Below are positions 47,786 through 61,062 of a DNA stretch of 64,000 bases, piece after piece. Position numbers and translations under genes: made by a program. A model generated the notes under the pieces. It had not been told where the DNA came from. It saw only the letters and a program-made list of their open reading frames with translations, and did no database searches. Source of the DNA: Stegostoma tigrinum. Its lineage: Eukaryota. The stretch is taken from contig NC_081387.1 of NCBI RefSeq assembly GCF_030684315.1, forward strand, positions 3,700,497 through 3,764,496, read 5' to 3'. Each line of letters begins with the position of its first letter. Positions within the stretch are counted from its first letter, which is position 1.

Positions 47786-49390
47786 AATTTATACACTTCC
47801 TCTGAGGAAATGTGCTCATTTGGAGGTTTGTACTGAGGGAGAGCTATTCCCTGGGGAGAATTAAAATGACAGTGAGCTGCCTCATTTTGGGGGCTAAATA
47901 GAGGAATAGGAATCTGTCATTTAGTGTCTCCAGTATGTCCCATCGTTCATTGAGGTCATGGTACCTTTGTGATCAAATTCCATATTCCTGGCCTTCATGT
48001 CCTCCCAAACCTTTGGTGAGTGGAAAGCTGTCAATCTCAGATTGAATGGTATCAGTCGATGTTACATTGAAGAAGGTTTGTGGACGTGAGTTTCAATTTT
48101 ATTTCACCCATTGTGTCTGAGACTCTGTCCTGATTTTACTCTCAAAAGTCTGGCTCTAAATTTCCAATGATAGCACTGGTCTTGGACTCCCCAACTAATA
48201 AAAATTGATGATGTCTATCTCTTTTCTACTGAAAACTTTGATCATGTCAGCTTCTGAAGTGTGAGGCATATAATCTGACTCTAATCTCTTCTCATAATTT
48301 AAATCTTGCTAACGATGGATCATTCCAGCAAATCTACTCAGTACTCCCTCCAAGAACAATATATCTTATTCTGACGCAATGACAGGATTGTCTAGATCTT
48401 GCTGATTTTCACTCATTCTTAAACTTTGCAGCGATTGTTTATCATTGTTTGCTCAGCCATTTTAGAGGCCAGTTCAGTGTTAGCGATGTTGTGTGGGACT
48501 GGAGACACAGGTAGACCAGTCCAGGCAGATGTAGCAGGTTTGCGTTATGAAGGACAATATTTACGCTTAAGAACAAGATTTTTATATTTTGATTTTGCTC
48601 CACATATTCTAAAATTTATTAAATTTGCCTTCACAACATGGAGTTGTTGAGGTGATCAGCAGAGACACCTTTAAGAGGAAACTAGAGTCACGAAATGGAG
48701 GATGGGACAAAAAACTGTGGTTCTAAGAGCTGCTGCTTTTTTGGGGGTATTTTTAGTGTTGGAGCTGATTTCTGCAAATTTTAGGAGCAGTAATTGCTTT
48801 TTGATAAGCTGTTGTATTGTTTTGGAACTGTAGGTAAAAATGATTAAAACAATGGCACTTTCTAAAAGGAGGAAGAGAGAAAGAGCAGATACCAAGTGGG
48901 AAGTGAAATAATTGGAAAAATAAACCTGCACAGCTGTCTGACCCAGCAGTGAACCTCACACCTGACGGCCTCTGCTGTTCAGCTTCAAGTGTCTATAGAC
49001 ACAGAGTTGGTTCTAAGAAAAATAAACAAGTGGTAAAATTCCCAGCTGACCTTGGAGAAACCTGTGTGGAGTAGTTCACAGCAGGGGAGCAGCTAAGTGG
49101 CTAGTTTTTAGTGTAATCTTACCGTTCATTTTTGTAAATCTACAACAGTGAGAAGAGTGGTTCTTTTTTGATTATATGTTTTTATTGAGACCTGTCTCTT
49201 GATTAAATTTTAAAAATATACAACATAGGTACTAAGTTACCCTTAGAGCAGTATTTTTAGAGCAGCAAGACTGGGCTATTTTCTGGGTCTGTAGATTGTT
49301 AAGGGATGGGGCCAGGGGTTCCATCTGGCCTGCTCCCACTCGCTCAAGTGGCTGCCGGAGGGTTTTAAATAAATGTACATAAATGCAAAG

Positions 49391-49640
49391 TTTCATCGAA
49401 ACATCTCTCAAGTCAGCAAAGTGAAATCTGTTCAGTTAGATGCCTGGGAGGATGATGAAGTTAAGTTTATGGCCTCTAATGGGAACAGTGCAACCAAAGC
49501 AAAATATGAGTTGAAGTTGCCGGCATTTTATTATAGACTAATGTTTACAGATGGTCAAGTACTTTGGGAACAGTGGATCCATACCAAATATGAAAGAAAG
49601 GGATTTGTTTGCATTGAGAAACAAGAGCCTCACTCTGCAG
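49391..49640 (+). pseudogene. ADAP1: Processed fragment of ADAP1 (centaurin-alpha1, ArfGAP domain)
   Basis: HRNISQVSKVKSVQLDAWEDDEVKFMASNGN...FYYR...EQWIHTKYERKGF..IEKQEPHSA matches my recollection of human ADAP1 HRNIPQVSKVKSVRLDAWEE..VEFMASHGN...FYYRP...EQWIRAKYERQEF..PEKQEPYSA. Colinear, no introns. Confidence 0.85.
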
Positions 49641-52600
49641 AAAGTGAGTATCCGAAGACTTGACAAACGCAAGTCAGAGAGACTGAGCCGGCATTCCTGG
49701 CTGAGGCCTTCTTCGGCTTTTGGAAGGTTGATGATTGTGTGGTGTAATGCTTTAGAGGGACCCGGAACAGGACTTAAGAGAAGGAAAACTCTGATTTTAA
49801 ACCTCCACTGCCTTGCGGCCATAACCAATCATGGGAAAGGCTTCGGGAGTAAACCCTGAGGATAAATCTGGAGCCGGAGTCCCTAAGACAGTCTGATGTT
49901 ATATCCAACCTTGTTCTGGCAACTCCTGCGACGATGCCAGTGCCAAGTTGTATCGGCCCCTGCCCTTCCCTTGGACAACACTGGTGGTGTTGAGAGGGGA
50001 GACGTGCTGCATGGGCAACTGCCGATCTCTCATAAAACCCTGCCCAGGCCTGCGCCCTGGAGAGGACACTCCAGCGTCACCTCATTGTGGCGGCAAAACA
50101 CGGAAAGTAGCAGTCTACCAGTTATAAGCCGCGCTCGAGTGGCGTAGAGCAAGGCGCCAGGGGTTGCTTTCAACAGAGGGAGAGGCCATCGCGCCTGCCT
50201 GCCAATTAGGTGCTGTCCTGCCACAGTCTGCCCACTCCACTGGGTGCGTGGGGCTCAGCGGTACAAGTATCCTGAATCGTGGACTGTAAACACTGCACCA
50301 AGCAAAACAACAAGGAAACAAAGAAGGAAGCCAGCATTCAGACTTGGATGCTGGAACATATGGGCCATGACAACTGGTCTATCAGACGGCCTTCGAGAGA
50401 TCAGCGACACCAGCAAGGCAGCAGTGATAAACAACAAACTGCTACAGCTTCAAGTGGACATTGCAGCACCCCAAGGGACAAGGCTCCCAGAATCGGTGAC
50501 CTTATGTGAGAGAGACTATACCTTCTTCTGGCAGGGGAAAGGCATAGACGAGACCAGAGAGCATAGTGTCAGCTTTGCCGTGAAGAACTCGCTGTTGAAG
50601 AACCCAGCGAAGATGGATTGGAGCGGATCCTCTCACTTCGACTGCACACCTTCGATGGGCCTGTTAACCTTATCAGCACTTATGCCCCAACCCCCTATTC
50701 CATACAAGATGCGAAGGATGAGTTTTAAAGATCAGCTTTCAAGGAAAGTACAGGCGATCCCAAATCAGGAACAGTTGCTGCTACTTGGTGACTTCTACGC
50801 CAGAGTGGGTGCCGACCACAACTCCTGGCCAGGCTGTCTGGGACTGTATGGGATCGGCAACATGAATGAAAATGGACAACAACTGCTCAAGCTTTGCATG
50901 CTCCACGCACTATGTGTCACCAACACCTACTTCCAGGCCAAAGTGCAGCACAAAGACTCATGGCAACATCGCTGCTCCAGACACTGGCACCAGCTAGATC
51001 TGATCCTCACAAGATGCATCCATCTGAAAAACGTGCTCATGATTCGGTCCTTTCAGAGTGCTGACTGTGACATGGATCACTCCCTGGTTTGCTGCAAATT
51101 CAGACTCCAAGAAAAGAAGATGCACTACGCCAAGCCTGCAGGCAAGCAGCGTGTCAATGTTACTACGACCCAACATTCAGACAAAGCGGCAGTATTCATC
51201 AAGTCACTGGAGGATGCCCACCTTGTAGACCCACCAGAAGGAGCTGCTCAGCAGAGATGGGACTCTCTAAGGGACACTATCCTCAGCACTGTGTTGAAAA
51301 CTTTTGGGAAGAAGCGGAGCAAGACACAGATTGGTTCAAAGCAAATGCAAATGAGCTCAACACGAGGCAAAGCGCACTGCACTGTTGAAACACAAACACC
51401 AACCTACCCAGGTAACACTGCAAGCGCTGAGGACAGCAAGAAACAACGCACAGAAGACAGTCAGATGCTGTGCAAATGACTACTGTTTATAACTATGCAA
51501 AAGCATCCAGTTATCATTTAACACAGGCAACATATGTAGAATGTATGAGGGGATCAAGAAAGCCATCGGTCCAACCCAGAGCAAGACAGTTCCACTAAAA
51601 TCCAGGACAGGCGAGATCATCAAAGAAAAAAGCAAGCAGATGGAGAGATGGGTGGAGCATTACTCCGAACTCTACTCCCGGGAAAACGACATCTTGGACA
51701 ACGCGTTAGACACCATGGAATGCCTACCGGTCATGGAGGAGCTGGACGCATTGCCAACTGCTGTCGAGCTGAGCAGAGCCATCGACAGCTTACCCACAGG
51801 GAAGGCACCAGGGTTGGATGGCATCCCATCAGAGGTCATCAAGTATGCAAAGGGAGTTCTGCTTAGCCACCTGCTGGAACTACTGTGCCAGTGCTGGGAG
51901 GAGGAAACGGTGCCGCAAGACATGAGAGACTGCAACATTGTCACCCTCTATAAGAACAAAGGAGACAGAAGCGACTGCGACAACTACAGAGGAATCTCGC
52001 TGATGAACATCGTCGGGAAGGTCTTCGCCCGCATGGTCCTGAACAGACTACAGAAAATTGCCAAAAGGGTGTAGCCTGAATCCCAGGACGGTTTCAGGTC
52101 AGAATGCTCCACACAATCGACATGGTTTTCTCCCTCCGACAGCTACAAGAGAAATGCCGAGAGCAAAGACAACCACTCTGCATCGCTTTCGTTGACCTCA
52201 TGAGGGCATTTGACCCTGTGAGCAGAGACGGCTCGTTCAAAATCCTCGCCAGGGTTGGTTGTCCTCCCAGACTCCTCAGAATAGTCCAATTGTTTCACGC
52301 GGATATGAAAGGCATCGTTCAATTTGATGGCTCTTGGGAGGCTTTCAACATCCGCAGTGGCGTGAAGCAGGGCTGTGTGCTTGCCCTCACCCTGTTCGGC
52401 ATCTTCTTCACCGTCATGCTGAAACACACATTTGGAACATCAACTGCTGGGGTCTACCTCCACACCAGATCGGACGGAAGGCTGTTCAGTCTGTCCCGGC
52501 TGAAGGAAAAATCCAAGGTTCGTGAAGTACTCATTAGAGACATGTTGTTTGCAGATGACGCAGCGTTGGCAGCACACTCTGAAGAGCAACTGCAGCACCT

Positions 52601-53529
52601 CATGGACAACCTCTCCAGAGCCTGCCAGGAATTCAGCCTGACCATTAGTCTGAAGAAGACCAACGTGCTGGGTCAAGGTGTTGAGCACCCCCCTATCATC
52701 ACCATCAACAACTACGAGCTGGAGGTAGTCCACGATTAACATACTCGGCTCAACCATCAGAGTCAGCCTCTCCCTGAACTCCGAGATCAACAGGCAGATC
52801 AGACAAGCAGCCTCCACATTTGCCAGGCTGACTGACAGAGTCTGGGAGAACAAAAAGCTGACTACAAACACCAAGATTGCAGTCTACAGGGCATGCGTCC
52901 TCAGCACACTGCTTTACGGCAGCGAGACCTGGAGCCTGTACTCCAGACAAGAGCGGCGTCTCAACGCTTTCCACCTTCGCAGCCTGAGACACATTCTGGA
53001 CATCAAGTGGACTGACCAAGTCACCAACACCGAAGTCCTCACCTGCGCCCAGGTACTCCGCCTCTTCACCCTACTCTAACAACACCACCTCCGCTGGTTA
53101 GGCCACGTACCTCATATGCCGGACGGGAGGATCCCGCAAGATGTGCTGTACGGGGAATTGGCCATCGCTAAGAAAGCACAAGGACGACCTCATCTTTGTT
53201 TCAAAGATGTCTGCAAAAGGGACATAAAGTCAATGGACCTGTACATCAAGAGATAAGAAGACATCACAAACGATCGCTCACGCTGGAGACGGGAACTACG
53301 CAGAGGCCTGGAGCAAGGAGAGGAGAAACTGAGACTTGCCGCTGAGGAAAAGTGCGCTCGACAGAAAGACAGCAACACGGCAACACTGGAGGACAGTGTC
53401 TTCAAACATAGTCACTGCAACCGAGACTGTCACTCCCGTGTGGGCCTGTACAGCCACAACAGCAGCTGAATCAAAACTCTCCGGGCGCAGATCCATGGTC
53501 TCTCGACACTGACGGATGCCACAACACAC
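49641..53529 (+). mobile_element. Near-full-length RTE-clade LINE (APE endonuclease + RT), with stops and frameshifts
   Basis: LGCWNI..., LLGDFYARVG, WHQLDLIL, DCDMDH; NYRGISL, AFVDLMRAFD, GVKQGC, MLFADD, LYGSETW, LRWLGHV; 3' end CCATGGTCTCTCGACACTGACGGATGCC + (AC/AAC) tail. Confidence 0.9.
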
Positions 53530-55225
53530 AGATTGTTAAGGTGCAAAGATGGCCTTTAGTAGAGTGATGTGTTCTTCCTGTCGGATGTTATAGATTAGGC
53601 AGACTTTCCATGTTACTGATGATTACGCCTGCAGGAAATGTGTTTGATTGTGAATCCTATTGGATTGCATGGGTCCGCTAGAGTGCCAGTTAGAGTCCAC
53701 GAAGAGTTGACAGAAGGTAGGGGATACGATGGATGGCAGTTGCAAGAAGGGAGAAAAACCACATATGTAGTCAGGTAGGAGTAGTAGGCAGGACATGCAG
53801 GAGTTTCCTGTGGCTATCCCCATCTCAAACAGTATGCTGTTTTGGAAAATGTAGGGGGCAAGACACTGTCAAGAAATGTAGCACTGACAGCCAGGTTCCC
53901 AGTACTGAGACTGGTTCTACTGTAACAAGGGGTACGTCAGGTTCAAAGGATCGATTGTGATAGGGGACTCTCCAAACAGAGGTACAGACTGATCTTTCTG
54001 TGGCCGACAATGAGATTTCAGAATGGTGTGTTGCCTCCCTGGTGTCAGGATCCAGGATATCTCGGACAAAGAGCGCAGAATATTCTCAAAGGGAAGGGGG
54101 ACCAGCAAGAGGTGGTTGTACACACTGGAACTAATGACATAGGAAGAGAAAAGGACAAGATTCTGAGGTGAGAATACAGGAAGTTAGACAGGAATTTTAA
54201 AAGTAGGTCCTCGAGGGTAGTAATATCTGGATTATTCCCGGTGCCATCAGCTAGTGAGAGTAGGACAGAGCAGATAAATGTGTGGCGGAGGAGCTGATGC
54301 TGGAGAGAAGGATTTACATTTTTGGATCACTGGAATCTCTTCTGGGGTAGAACTGGCCTGTATAAGAAGGACAGATTGCACCTGAATTGGAAGGGGACTG
54401 ATATGCTGGCAGGGAGATTTACTAGAGCTGCTTGGGAGGATTTAAACTAGTAAGGGGACGGGGGTGGGGTCAGACGCAAGGAGACAGTGAGACAAGAGAT
54501 CAGTCAGAGACTGGTACAGTTGGGAAAAGGAGTGGGTCAAACAGTCAGCGCAGGCAGGAACAAAGAAGAGAACGAGGTAAGGCTGATAAATTAAACAGCA
54601 TTTCTTTCAGTGCAAGAGACCTGACACGTAACGCAGATGAACTCAGGGCACAGTTGGTAACAATGGGACTGGGATACCAATGCGGTTACAGAGGTATAAC
54701 TCAGGGATGGACAGGATTGGCAGCTTAATGTTTCCATGTAATAGATGCTATAGGAAGGATAGAAATGGCAGCAAGACAGGAATGGGAGTGACGATTTTGA
54801 TTAGGGATAATATTACGGTTGTACCTGGGGAGGATGTTCTAGGGAGTATGTCCAGTGAAGTTATTTGGATGGAACTGAGAAATAAGAAAGGGATAATCAT
54901 TTTATTGTGGTTGTGCTGTCGTCCCTCCAATAGTAAGCAGGAAACTGAGAAACAAATTTGTAAGGCAATCTCAGTTACCTATAAGAATAATAAAGTGGTT
55001 ATGGTAGGGGATTTTAACTTTCCAGACAAAGACTGGATCTGTCATAGTGTTGGATGCTTGGATGGTGTGGAATTTTGTTAAGTGTGTACAAAAGAATGTT
55101 TTGATTCAGTATGTGGACGTACATGCTAGAGAAGGTGTAAAACTTGACCTACTCTTTGAAAATAAGGCAAGGCAAGTGACTAAAGTGTCAGTGGGGGAGC
55201 ACTTTGGGACTAGTGATCATAATTC

Positions 55226-55931
55226 CCTGCAGAGACTGTGAGAAACGCTACATCAGACAAATAGGAAGGAAACTAACTGAAATGGAAGTTGAAATGCTGT
55301 AACTGGATACCAAGAAAGTTGTTTACAACCTGGGAAAATAGCATGTGTATTATTGAGCTGAGTATAATGTAGCTTTTTGGAATAAAAAGAAGGAAAAGTC
55401 ATGACTCAAGAGCACTGCTAAATTTTCATGTTACAAAAATACACCTGACAACAGCTTTCTGATTGGTTGAACTACAGAGTGTTAAAGCTGTAGGCATGAG
55501 CACCAACAACAGTACATGAGCACCAACTGGCTACAAAATGACGCGACCAGTACTCACTCATGTCAATATAAATGAACAAGGAGAGTGACCACTTTGACTG
55601 GGACAACATGAAAATCCTGGGACACACTAGGCAGAAACAGGGACGAGAATTCCTAGAAGCCAAGCACTCCACGAAGCATGCTATTAATAAACACATTTAC
55701 TCGACCCCATATACATTCCACTATGAAGAAAAACCGGAAGTGAGACAATCCATCTCAACAGACTCCAGAGTTTAAAAACCAGGTGGTAAAACACGCCAGT
55801 GCTTCATAGGAGGCTGCGCTGAGGATGTTACCCAGCATGGTAACAAAACGTCTGCGAAACAAGAAACCAGCTTGGTGAGCCAACCAACCTCAATACCTTC
55901 AACCTGAGGTACAAATCTACTCCAAAACCTA
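55226..55931 (+). mobile_element. Penelope-like 3' fragment inserted in CR1 ORF2, with hammerhead-like motif at 55819-55852
   Basis: HEHQLATK...HFDWDNMKILGH...REFLEA; flanked by AGTGATCATAATTC (55212-55225) and AGTGAGCATAATTC (55932-55945); CTGAGGA-TGTTACC-CAGCAT-GGTAAC-AAAACGTC. Confidence 0.75.
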
Positions 55932-58900
55932 AGTGAGCATAATTCTGTTAGTTCTAAAATAATGATGGAAAAGGATGGACCAGATCTAAAAGTTAAATTG
56001 GAGAATTTGGAGAAAGGCTAATTTTGATGATATTAGGGAAGACACTTTTGAAAGTTGACTGGATGGGTAGGGATTGTGGATATTTGTAGGTAAAGAGACA
56101 GCTGGAAAAAGGGAAGCTTTTAAAAATGACATATTGAGAGTCCAGAGACAATCATGGTTTTGGGTCAAGAATGAAAATGGAAGAACATGTCAGCAGAGAT
56201 CAAATGAACCCCTACAAGAGCATAAAAGCAGTAGGAGTATACTTAAGACGGAAATCGGGAGGACAGAAAGGGGACTTGAGATAGCATTGACAAATAGGGT
56301 TATGGAGAATCAAAAGGGATTCCACAAGTACACTGAGGACAAAAGAGCAACAAGGGAGTGAATAGGGCCCCTTAAAGATTAGCAAAGTTGCCTATATGTA
56401 GAACTGTAGGAGATGGAGGAGATATTAAACAAGTATTTTGCACCAGTGTTTGCTGTGGAGAAGGATATGGAAGATCAGAACAAGGGGAAATAAATAGCAA
56501 CATCTTAAAAAAATGCCTACATTACAGAAGAAGTGGTGCTGGACATCTTAAAATGCATGAAGGTGGATAAATCCTTGGACCACTCAGATGTACCCTCAAA
56601 TTCTGTGCGAAGCTAGGGAAGTGATTGCTGGATCCCTTGCTGAGATACTTATATCATCAATAGCCTCAGATCAGGTTAGTCAGAAGACTTGAGGGTCGCT
56701 AAAGTGGTACCACTATTTAAGAAAGGTGGTAAGGAAAAGCCAGGGAACTAAAGACCAGTGAGCCTGACATCGGTGGTGGGCAAGTTGTTGGAAGGAGTCC
56801 TGAGAGACAGGACTTACATGTATTTGGAAAGGCAGGGACTGATTAGGGATAGTCATCATAGCTTTATGTGTGTGAAGTCATATCTCACTAACTTGGTTGA
56901 GTTTTTTAAAGAGGTAACAAAGAAGATTGATGAGGGCAGAGTGGTGGAGATGATCTATATTGATTTCAGTAAGGTGTTTAGCAAGGTTCCACATGGTAGA
57001 CTGGTTAGTAAGGCTGGATCACAGGGAATACGGGGAGACCTAGCTATGTGGATACAGAACTGGCTTGTAGGTAGAAGACAGAGGGTGGCGGTAGAGGGTT
57101 GATTTTCAGACTGGAGGCCTGTGACCAGCGGTGTGCCATAAGGATTGGTGCTGGGTGCACTGCTTTTGTCATTTATATAAATGATTTGAATGTGAATATA
57201 GAAGATTACCTCAGAGTGCAACGGGACCTTGATCAGATGGGCCAATGAGCCAAGGAGTAGCAGCTGGCATTTAATTTATTCGGAAGGATATTGTGAAACC
57301 TGAAAGGGTTCAGAAAGGGTTTACAAGGACGTTGCCAGGGTTGGAGGGTTTTAACTGTAGGGAGAAGTTTAATAGGCTGGGGCTATCTTCCCTGGAGTGT
57401 TGGAGGCTGAGGGGTGGATCACAGGGAATACAGGGAGACCTAGCTATGTGGATACAGAACTGGCTTGTAGGTAGAAGACAGAGGTTTATAAAATCATGAG
57501 GGACATTGATAGGGTGCATAGCTAAGGTCTTTTCCCTTGGAGTGAGGAAGTCCAAAACTAAAGGGCATAGGTTTATGGTGAGAGGGAAAACATTGAAAGG
57601 GGAGCTAAAGGGCAACTTTTTCATGCAGAAGCTAGTGCATGTATGCAATGAACTGCCAGAGGAAGTGGTGGAGGTACAATTACAACATTCAGAAGGCATC
57701 AGGTTGGATACATGAATAGGAAGGATTTGGTGGGATATGGGCCAATTGCTGGAAAATGGGACGAGATTAATTTAGTATTGCTGGTTGGCATGGAACAGTT
57801 GGACCAAAGGTTCTGTTTCCATGCTGTACTATCCCTTCATAACTCTGAATGAGTTCATGCTCTTTAAAGGTGAAGACAAACAAAAATACAGGCAATTTGA
57901 CACATCTAATATCGGTGGAAAATTGCTAGAGACAGTGAACAAAACCCCTAACATCAAATGTTCAGACCACGAGGTGGAAAATTCTTTTACTCTTGCAGTC
58001 CTTTTTTATTTTTGTAATGATGAGAATGTTGTGTCTCTACAGTAATGATCATCTTTAATTTGATGGTTAGTCAGATGAACTGAAATCTTCTCTTGTATGA
58101 TATCTTTCTTTTAAAATTTCTTGGGTTTTCTATCTTTTTCTGCATGAGCAGACTGAGAAGGAGAAGGATGCATTCTGTCTGTAGGCTCTGGATCATTTTA
58201 CTCTCTGCTACCTTTGGCATCTACAGCTTTAACACTCTGTAGTTCAACCAATCAGAAGGCTTTTGCCAGATATATTTTTGTAACATGAAAGATTATCAGT
58301 GCTATTGAGTCATAACTTTTCCTTCTTTTTATTCCAAAAAGCTACATTGTACTGAGCTCAATAATACACATGCTATTTTTCCAGCTTGTAAACAACTTTC
58401 TTGCTATTCAGTTATAGCATTTCAACTTCCATTTCAGTATATAGTCTGAAAACTGGAAAAAAAAGAGTCTCTTACATGAGATATGCATATGAAGAAGGGA
58501 ACAGAAGGCTATGCTGACAGAATGGGATGAAGTGGGGTAAGAGGAGGCTTGAGTGATGCTTAAACTAGTTGAACCAAATGGCCTGTTTTCACCGTAATCC
58601 AATGTTTTGTACTTCCCATGATTGGATTTGAACTCTCAAACTTTGCATTGCTAATCCAACACCATTGTAATTCAACTGCCATACGTGGAGATACATTTAT
58701 TGAAACGTCTTTTAATGCCTTTTTTAAAGATTTTACCTGAAGGTGTTAGCCTTTCCCCTAAACCTAGACTTCATTTGCACAGTGTTGTAGCTGAGAGTTG
58801 AATCTGGAATGTGCATTCTGACAGCTTGCAGTGTTTCTGATTTCCCAGAGTAAATCGGAGCCCTTCAATCAGCTACGCTGAAGCAATATTTTCCTCACCT

Positions 58901-59089: not shown

Positions 59090-59730
59090 TGGCCCAACTA
59101 TTTTTCCCATTGTCCTCTTAGTGCCTGGGAAGATGGGGGCCAGAGTCAAGGAAATGAAATAGCCTTACTGTCTGCTCCTGATCATGATGCAGTGCCCCTG
59201 CTGGACACAGTGGTGAATGACAGTCAAGTGAGGGAAAAGAAAGAACTTGTATCTGATCCCCAACACAGGGAAATAGCAGACTGGCACACACTGTGAAACA
59301 GTCTCTAACTGAGGAGTCAGCCCCTTCAGCAAAGGAAAATCACATTTGCTTTTCCTGTTCTACTGAAGGATTACACCATATACACCAGAACATAGACAGG
59401 ATATACTTCGTAGATAGATGCTGACCATCACCCAAGGTACAACTGTGGAAAGACATCCAGCCCCTTCACAGCATTGCTCAACACAGAGAAGTTTGGTTAG
59501 TGAAGCCATCATCTGGAAATCGGTAGGGTCAAGGGAGCTTTGACATATCATCAGATCTGAAAATGGTCAGTGGTGTGGAGCCTTTGATTAGAGCCAACTA
59601 TTTTAAGGTTTGCGTGTGAGTGATTGCTGAGAGTGAGGCTGGCAAGTGAGTGTGAGGGACTCCACGAGGTGACAAGACCATCAAACACACAAGGTGCATT
59701 TGTTGTATACCTGTTAAGGAAAGAGCAACA
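59090..59730 (+). other. Leader module of ZF unit 6, main acceptor mutated (AG>TG at 59364-59365)
   Basis: Homologous to 2030-2665. Confidence 0.7.
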
Positions 59731-61062
59731 GAGAACATAGAACAGTACAGCACAGAACAGGCCCTTCAGCCCACGATGTTGTGCCGACCATTGATCCTCA
59801 TGTATGCACCCTCAAATTTCTGTGACCATATGCATGTCCAGCAGTCTCTTAAATGACCCCAATGACCTTGCTTCCACAACTGCTGCTGGCAACGCATTCC
59901 ATGCTCTCACAACTCTCTGTGTAAAGAACCCGCCTCTGACATCCCCTCTATACTTTCCTCCAACCAGCTTAAAACTATGACCCCTCGTGTTAGCCATTTC
60001 TGCCCTGGGAAATAGTCTCTGGCTATCAACTCTATCTATGCCTCTCATTATCTTGTATACCTCAATTAGGTCTCCTCTCCTCCTCCTTTTCTCCAATGAA
60101 AAGAGACTGAGCTCAGTCAACCTCTCTTCATAAGATAAGCCCTCCAGTCCAGGCAGCATCCTGGTAAACCTCCTCTGAACCCTCTCCAAAGCATCCACAT
60201 CTTTCCTATAATAGGGCGACCAGAACTGGACGCAGTATTCCAAGTGCGGTCTAACCAAAGTTTTATAGAGCTGCAACAAGATCTCACGACTCTTAAACTC
60301 AATCCCCCTGTTAATGAAAGCCAAAACTCCATATGCTTTCTTAACAACCCTGTCCGCTTGGGTGGCCATTTTAAGGGATCTATCTATCTGCACACCAAGA
60401 TCCCTCTGTTCCTCCACAATGCCAAGAATCCTATCCTTAATCCTGTACTCAGCTTTCAAATTCGACCTTCCAAAATGCAACACCTCGCATTTATCCAGGT
60501 TGAACTCCATCTGCCACCTCTCAGCCTATCTCTGCATCCTGTCAATGTCCCGCTGCAGCCTACAACAGCCCTCTATACTGTCAACGACACCTCCAACCTT
60601 CGTGTCGTCTGCAAACTTGCTGACCCATCCTTCAATCCCCTCATCCAAGTCATTAATAAAAATTACAAACAGTAGAGGCCCAAGGACAGAGCACTGTGGA
60701 ACACAACTCACCACTGACTTCCAGGCAGAATGTTTTCCTTCTACTACCACTCGCTGCCTTCTGTTGGCCAGCCAATTCTGTATCCAGACAGCTAAGTTCC
60801 CCTGTATCCCATTCCTCCTGACCTTCTGAATGAGCCTTATCAAATGGGGAACCTTATCAAATGCCTTACTGAAGTCCATATACACCACATCCACAGCTCG
60901 ACCCTCATCAACTTTTCTAGTCACATCCTCAAAGAACTCGATAAGGTTTGTGAGGCATGACCTGCCCCTCACAAAGCCATGTTGACTGCATTTAATCTAG
61001 CCATGCTCTTCCAGATGGTCATAAATCCTATCCCTCAGAATCCTTTCTAACATCTTGCAGAC
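59731..61062 (-). mobile_element. Young 5'-truncated CR1 LINE
   Basis: Long ORFs 60526-60972 (YMDFSKAFDKVPH, KFADDTK) and 59812-60510; AGAACAT-type tail. Confidence 0.92.

Follow-up and report, generated by a model that had tools for sequence, protein, structure and literature searches.

How a long interspersed nuclear element (LINE) of the RTE type came to carry spliced pieces of host genes in front of its own 5' part is the question raised by a stretch of 64,000 nucleotides of the Stegostoma tigrinum genome (NCBI RefSeq assembly GCF_030684315.1, contig NC_081387.1, positions 3,700,497 to 3,764,496 of the forward strand). This whole stretch is called the window here, and positions refer to it unless another contig or locus is given. 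The original prediction had described, at 49293..53541, an insertion flanked by a target-site duplication (TSD) in which a fragment of spliced ADAP1 mRNA is fused to an RTE. It had been attributed to a source RTE lying in an ADAP1 intron, transcribed from the host promoter, spliced from an ADAP1 donor into the RTE 5' region and retrotransposed as one unit. The 470-bp head of the insertion is in fact a sense-strand stack from three genes, matrin-3-like, ADAP1 and SMARCC2-like, with the RTE next (Table 1). Foreign heads are a family-wide habit of this shark RTE, and the window copy is its three-gene case.

One insertion, three host genes

The interval 49293..53541 is one insertion with a target duplication, since the 12-mer at its two ends is present only at 49293 and 53530 when the whole window is searched, a 12-mer match at that distance arises at 13 of 3000 random positions, and of 19 further copies of the interrupted LINE, which we take to be of CR1 type, 18 have a single 12-mer and are continuous through the site into the ATG (53549). 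The same continuity bears out the earlier claim that removal of the interval restores a CR1-type 5' untranslated region (UTR) running into its start codon. From 5' to 3', the head consists of matrin-3-like exon 1 with 17 further nt, a 14-nt filler, ADAP1 exons and SMARCC2-like sequence that spans the boundary between exon 1 and intron 1. When the genome was searched with 49305-49700, six matches resulted, namely the window itself, the three ADAP1 exons (C27), one match on C15 and one on C5. The three source genes are unrelated to one another and sit on three different large contigs. Loss of CpG is located on the copy side and not in the parents, which fixes the direction of copying from parent to window.

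The ADAP1 segment is intronless, as had been predicted, and the genome search for its parent allowed the exon boundaries to be mapped. The piece starts partway through exon 2 rather than at a splice site and ends at the phase-1 CAG/gt donor of the 48.1-kb intron 4, a phase-1 exon end like the one given earlier for human ADAP1. It thus resembles a processed pseudogene in having its introns removed, but its end is the exon 4 donor, without poly(A). From the parent it differs at 16 of 249 nt (11 of 235 non-CpG and 5 of 14 CpG positions), with 12 non-synonymous codon changes for 197 sites and 2 synonymous ones for 49 sites, and it decays neutrally. On the same codon counts, a function of the 96-aa open frame at 49373-49663 was rejected.

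On both sides of ADAP1 the original prediction had to be revised. ADAP1 had been taken to run directly into the RTE 5' UTR; instead, 49639-49776 aligns with a SMARCC2-like gene, from the last 3 nt of exon 1, and the AG before them that is common to the ADAP1 exon end, into intron 1. RTE-family sequence begins only at 49773-49776, at the foot of the terminal hairpin and about 40 nt downstream of the native 5' end. The SMARCC2 piece differs from its parent at 7 of 114 non-CpG and 7 of 24 CpG positions. Upstream, the 85 bp left unassigned are mostly matrin-3-like exon 1, with 4 differences from the parent, every one at CpG, spliced to 17 nt that lie behind an acceptor 2.4 kb downstream, where 18 of the 22 bases before the AG are pyrimidines. 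In an RNA-like contig exon 1 is joined instead to a coding exon 23 kb away, and four contig sets gave zero cover of the intronic acceptor, which is uninformative either way. A 23-nt deletion could account, on a direct reading, for 7 of the 14 nt of the filler. Between exon 1 and the intronic acceptor, intron 1 of the matrin-3-like gene also holds a long C-rich tandem array (C15:77081750-77080000).

As RTE heads, the ADAP1 and matrin-3-like pieces were found by genome search in one copy only, that of the window, so the further ADAP1-headed copies that had been sought did not materialize. A second copy (C20:13414471) has the same SMARCC2 piece and SMARCC2-RTE joint between different flanks and retains the 22 nt deleted in the window; therefore, a headed template gave more than one insertion. 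A TSD was looked for around this C20 copy and none was found. The window insertion is dead DNA without sign of function.

Table 1. Features of the insertion and of the element that it interrupts (EN, endonuclease; RT, reverse transcriptase; ORF, open reading frame)
Feature	Position	Strand	Remarks
CR1-type LINE 5' UTR, left flank	48700..49292	+	72-85% match to sister copies; contiguous with right flank in 18/19
Target-site duplication, left copy, 12 bp	49293..49304	+	repeated 12-mer
Two extra bases at the outer 5' joint	49305..49306	+	absent from matrin-3-like parent
3' 54 nt of CpG-rich non-coding exon 1 of the matrin-3-like gene, to its donor	49307..49360	+	C15:77082327-77082274
17 nt behind acceptor in matrin-3-like intron 1, joined to exon 1 by splicing	49361..49377	+	acceptor at C15:77079904; 17/17 identical
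14-nt filler	49378..49391	+	weakly like matrin-3-like bases at the joint
ADAP1 exon 2 (3' 74 nt), exon 3 and exon 4, spliced	49392..49640	+	parent on C27, exons 90-96% identical
SMARCC2-like exon 1 (last 3 nt) and 155 nt of intron 1, with 22-nt deletion	49641..49776	+	C5:94354950-94355109
RTE-type LINE without its first ~40 nt (terminal hairpin)	49775..53529	+	one broken EN-RT ORF, 50367-53460; short CA/CAA tail
Target-site duplication, right copy	53530..53541	+	repeated 12-mer
Remainder of CR1-type element	53542..57100	+	ATG 53549, decayed ORF1, EN and RT remnants, further insertion inside

Foreign heads on sister copies

The family was sampled as the 40 best-scoring copies from a search with the RTE 5' region, a biased sample. 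Their 5' ends fall into 17 native ends, 17 with a common 550-nt head, 2 with the SMARCC2 head and 4 others. At least 26 of the 40 near-full-length copies bear a foreign head; 6 of these heads are of host-gene origin, and 3 of those are multi-part. Among the native-end copies, 6 have a head of at least 100 nt, in 5 the TSD is no more than 40 nt away from the native end, and 6 are assigned to neither class. All identified gene pieces are in sense orientation, five come from CpG-rich regions (observed/expected CpG 0.72-1.26), and no identified head is ribosomal or small nuclear RNA.

A two-part head (L116:1101-1397; C6:51088100) is made of a piece which we take to be of myosin-tail type, compatible with two weak matches, followed by COG3 exon 1, 18 nt behind an intronic acceptor and a filler. 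These 18 nt, which run into stops, precede the true exon 2 by 5.8 kb, and 16 of 22 bases in the acceptor tract are pyrimidines; a search of the genome for the parent of the myosin-tail-like piece did not find one. A three-part head (L121:1023-1630; C43:917523-918130), on a copy with an imperfect TSD, joins a non-coding piece from C22, 87 unplaced nt and the end of a BTB-gene exon with about 200 nt of intron. Another head consists of an exon end of a gene on C19 with about 75 nt of intron, and a BORCS6-like head, counted among the others, is made of spliced exons joined at the same hairpin foot. One head is a piece of a 36-copy region, and one repeat-like head is common to two copies. Heads on L122 and L127 were also examined and were not supported.

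The shared 550-nt head is a repeat resembling a short interspersed nuclear element (SINE) that also exists in hundreds of free copies; in the head it ends short of its tail, and a repetitive linker connects it to the RTE. In the subfamily that it defines (L132:947-1499 and 16 further copies, e.g. C1:37714447-37715000), a SINE-like element stands in place of the RTE 5' end. In L132 the TSD lies directly before the SINE-like start, and the SINE-like head therefore likely supplies a promoter. One SINE-headed copy (L097 and L222; C27:4079521 onward) is interrupted by an element with a 530-codon open frame and two zinc-finger-like motifs, presumably R2/NeSL-like. Two further loci are related to heads by their sequence: an intronless, decayed BORCS6-like copy with a SINE insert (L179; C37:10746873) shows no RTE link within the locus examined, and a region 80-86% identical to the head of copy L073, present in at least 35 copies (L138-L144; C13 and many small contigs), looks like a large multi-copy duplication.

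Routes by which the head may have been built

Observed directly are how the insertion is put together, that its host exons are spliced, that two copies have one SMARCC2 joint in common, that decay is neutral and that sister copies bear similar heads; from these we infer a series of rounds of transduction. Serial host-promoter 5' transduction through intronic source copies since lost is the account that we favour, with modest confidence. In each round a parent copy would lie in sense orientation in a host intron, be read from the host promoter and be copied onward. A copy cut back as far as the foot of its 5' hairpin would have landed 155 nt into SMARCC2 intron 1 and been transcribed by read-through from exon 1. 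Its daughter would have landed in the 48-kb ADAP1 intron 4, where exon 4 was spliced to the AG at the daughter's 5' edge. A further daughter, truncated inside ADAP1 exon 2, would then have inserted into matrin-3-like intron 1 at a point 17 nt past an acceptor and left a filler there, with the outcome that matrin-3-like exon 1 was spliced to that intronic acceptor. In a fourth round, the resulting RNA would have been inserted into the CR1 5' UTR of the window. All three source alleles would have acted as gene traps and been lost; former source sites are predicted at C5:94355109, C15:77079888 and, for COG3, C14:74391374. Only a source that adjoined a donor or lay immediately past an acceptor would yield stable capped RNA, which would account for the two kinds of head seen.

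Several observations argue for such rounds. On two different copies, the matrin-3-like and COG3 heads have exon 1 spliced to an acceptor within the intron, which stands 17 nt before the joint in the former and 18 nt in the latter; in both, a host donor is joined to an acceptor ahead of the element, with 18/22 and 16/22 pyrimidines in the tract. The match of the COG3 filler is to intron DNA upstream of the acceptor, at 59-44 nt ahead of the joint; none of 621 control windows equalled it (0 of 496 in another run), and, since this DNA is absent from the spliced RNA, the filler leans to a genomic source. Fillers copied from neighbouring host sequence were likewise found in two other places, the BTB joint (0 of 246 controls) and a true integration joint (3 of 624). 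Extra target-copied bases are described at R1/R2 5' joints (PMC2718515). The stop of ADAP1 at the donor of a 48.1-kb intron counts on the same side, and the shared heads (SMARCC2 in 2 copies, the repeat-like head in 2 and the SINE-like head in 17 of 40) count for headed templates. A Schistosoma element of the RTE clade is moreover reported to use host promoters (PMC8501958). Of the spliced 5' transduction claimed at the outset, the spliced ADAP1 RNA template and the joint at an exon donor therefore stand, while the donor is joined to SMARCC2-like sequence and not to the RTE; cis-splicing from an intronic source under a host promoter draws its support from the matrin-3-like and COG3 joints. The ADAP1 joint itself does not discriminate: its donor is exact, the AG has a poor pyrimidine tract in SMARCC2 (9/22) and is equally readable as 2-nt microhomology, and cis-splicing, trans-splicing and a template jump are all compatible with it; it is the least settled of the joints.

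Several points weigh against these rounds, including that weak AG. In none of eight parent regions searched (ADAP1, SMARCC2-like, matrin-3-like, COG3, BORCS6-like, the C19 gene, the BTB gene and the C22 region; 40-240 kb each) is an RTE of the family present at the joint, which holds for all three parents of the window copy; one 35-aa protein match upstream of COG3 has no DNA match. For the window copy alone, three lost sources are required. Which fillers to test was decided after inspection, and the strongest of them belongs to a sister copy; that of the window matches matrin-3-like bases at the joint in 10 of 11 positions, equalled in 25 of 434 control windows (not significant), and a second terminal filler has no local template (339 of 624 controls). 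The two SMARCC2-headed copies are not sisters in the family tree and have only 5 rare alleles in common, as unrelated copies do, and their two shared differences from the SMARCC2 parent fall at CpG. The tree, star-like and without support, gives no order to the rounds. The BORCS6-like head ends within a coding exon, and three heads of independent origin meet the RTE at the 3' foot of a single terminal hairpin, as at published template-switch hot spots (PMC2104539).

Several of these points also favour assembly at the RNA level, in which the reverse transcriptase would jump between RNA ends, or trans-splicing or ligation would join the RTE, SMARCC2 nascent RNA, a free 5' exon of ADAP1 and matrin-3-like RNA before one insertion, so that only one headed master would be needed. 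We regard it as possible but rather doubtful. The missing source in eight of eight parent regions, the clustering of joints at the hairpin foot, the joint in mid coding exon, the star tree and the multi-part nature of three headed copies all fit it. In human mRNA/LINE-1 chimeras too, the host part is reported to end at a donor that precedes a long intron (median 48 kb), with 15 of 17 lacking an intronic L1, which their authors read as trans-splicing, and U6-RTE chimeras of Anolis and tripartite LINE chimeras have been ascribed to template switching. Assembly from RNA would, however, require that in two genes RNAs ended 17-18 nt past an intronic acceptor that is rarely used. It also leaves the COG3 filler unexplained: the joined sequence is all present in partner RNA in the window copy, but not in the COG3-headed sister, where the filler is spliced-out intron. 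The partners of the window copy are three ordinary protein-coding genes, not members of an abundant small or repeat RNA class, and a headed template in the genome is needed for two copies to have the identical SMARCC2 joint. Absence of the sources fits RNA-level joining and would also fit the long-term loss of gene-trapping alleles. A mixture of serial transduction and RNA-level joining is likely.

A patchwork made at the DNA level, by separate insertions, repair-templated capture of cDNA at one break, nested retrocopies or chimeric assembly, is improbable. Short fillers and microhomologies at the joints are marks of repair too, but a single target duplication encloses host pieces and element in sense orientation, neither poly(A) nor an inner duplication is present between the parts, and the same layout recurs in sister copies. 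All head joints are bridged without mismatch by short-read contigs spanning 49276-49511, 49482-49728 and 49699-49802 (two runs of one sample, possibly the assembled one), by which assembly error is largely refuted. Less probable still, and very much so, is the single round first proposed, with a source RTE in an ADAP1 intron and the ADAP1 donor spliced directly into the RTE 5' region. It would produce a joint placed as the observed one is, at the donor of an exon that is followed by a 48-kb intron; the donor nevertheless joins SMARCC2-like sequence, the head begins with a matrin-3-like piece from a third contig, and no family RTE is present in the 240 kb around ADAP1, where the source had been placed. 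Refuted as a complete account, this model survives as one step of serial transduction.

Related systems and the element itself

Among the closest counterparts are human ones. In the human genome 17 mRNA/LINE-1 5' chimeras are reported, and for one of them a RAP1GDS1/L1PA2 source with a cryptic acceptor 15 bp upstream of the intronic element (Law and Burns, bioRxiv 10.1101/2025.02.02.635956). As described there, they resemble the shark case in the TSD around sense host exons and a near-full-length LINE, in the exon end at a donor before a long intron and in the usual absence of a source, and the RAP1GDS1-L1PA2 layout recalls the acceptor joints at 17-18 nt. The shark differs in having an RTE-type element, three genes in one head and filler evidence for a DNA-level joint, and in frequency, with at least 26 heads among 40 sampled RTE copies against 17 cases in the human genome. 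In 5' transduction of MAST2 by SVA_F1 (Kirby et al. 2025, PMC12593883), a host exon is likewise reported to be acquired by splicing or promoter read-through and the headed lineage to become a subfamily, for which the SINE-like head is the shark counterpart. SVA is, however, non-autonomous, L1-driven and young, with sources often traceable, whereas the shark RTE is of autonomous type and old, with no source left.

Tripartite chimeric retrogenes of the Magnaporthe element MGL, explained by a double template jump (Gogvadze et al. 2007, PMC2104539), share pieces under one TSD, a common orientation and hairpin joints with the window copy, and U6-RTE chimeras of Anolis (Doucet et al. 2015, PMC4476161) share transcript pieces and an RTE under one TSD in the same orientation. 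The partners described for both are abundant non-coding or repeat RNAs, unlike the protein-coding exons, intron starts, intronic acceptors and four components of the shark. RTE derivatives that became SINEs (Kojima 2020, PMC7245038) also acquired and passed on foreign 5' heads; there, the reported heads are tRNA, 5S, 7SL, 28S, snoRNA or unknown GC-rich sequences on deleted derivatives, as opposed to mRNA pieces on full-length elements. The DNA-level duplication treated in PMC3434034 is a different phenomenon. No report of RTE 5' transduction of protein-coding exons was found in the open literature, subscription journals and bioRxiv supplements being outside the search.

The process therefore belongs to a known class, and what is new is the element type, the depth of stacking and a testable filler trace. 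Missing sources of human mRNA/L1 chimeras have so far been read as a sign of trans-splicing, and the shark family gives many more cases per copy; fillers from spliced-out intron DNA, together with intronic acceptors before the joint, constitute a simple test between a lost genomic source and RNA-level joining. They also concern a non-L1 LINE able to fuse exons from several genes, in a lineage in which retrocopy formation has been little studied. It is quite possible, although we would stop short of calling it probable, that in sharks this RTE family lacked a usable promoter of its own and owed most of its spread to short-lived copies in host genes and SINEs, each generation keeping host 5' exons. 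The heads would then be a record of vanished sources (SMARCC2, ADAP1, matrin-3-like) and of a routine route of multi-gene exon shuffling by a non-L1 LINE.

As for the element, a single EN-RT ORF of about 1050 aa (apurinic endonuclease and RT) without ORF1, and CA/CAA tandem tails without poly(A), with mostly 8-13-bp TSDs across copies, agree with the RTE clade, a label that we assume from this architecture. Residues 1-1037 of a 1044-aa EN-RT homologue align to the broken ORF in four pieces, with RVT_1 present, and the best RT matches among proteins are unnamed or 'uncharacterized' entries. At the native 5' end there is only the terminal hairpin, with folding no better than that of shuffles, and a search for a 5' self-cleaving ribozyme gave no Rfam family in six loci at E<=1 except one chance hit. 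The tree of 26 family copies, built after removal of CpG-like and gappy columns, is a star without support in which copies lie 3.4-5.4% (non-CpG) from the column majority; the family copies, to judge from their sequences, appear to stem from one old burst.

Three side observations may be added. An internally deleted copy (L076; C3:34227024-34227565) combines about 350 nt of the 5' end with about 110 nt of the 3' end within a 10-bp TSD, a bipartite non-autonomous form. The decayed RT at 52080-52736 of the window has 76-80% protein identity to lancelet elements, high for the distance, which may hint at horizontal transfer. Finally, a young CR1-type 3' end lies at 59727-60838 of the window, 97% identical to a copy on C27 and with a 237-codon open frame.

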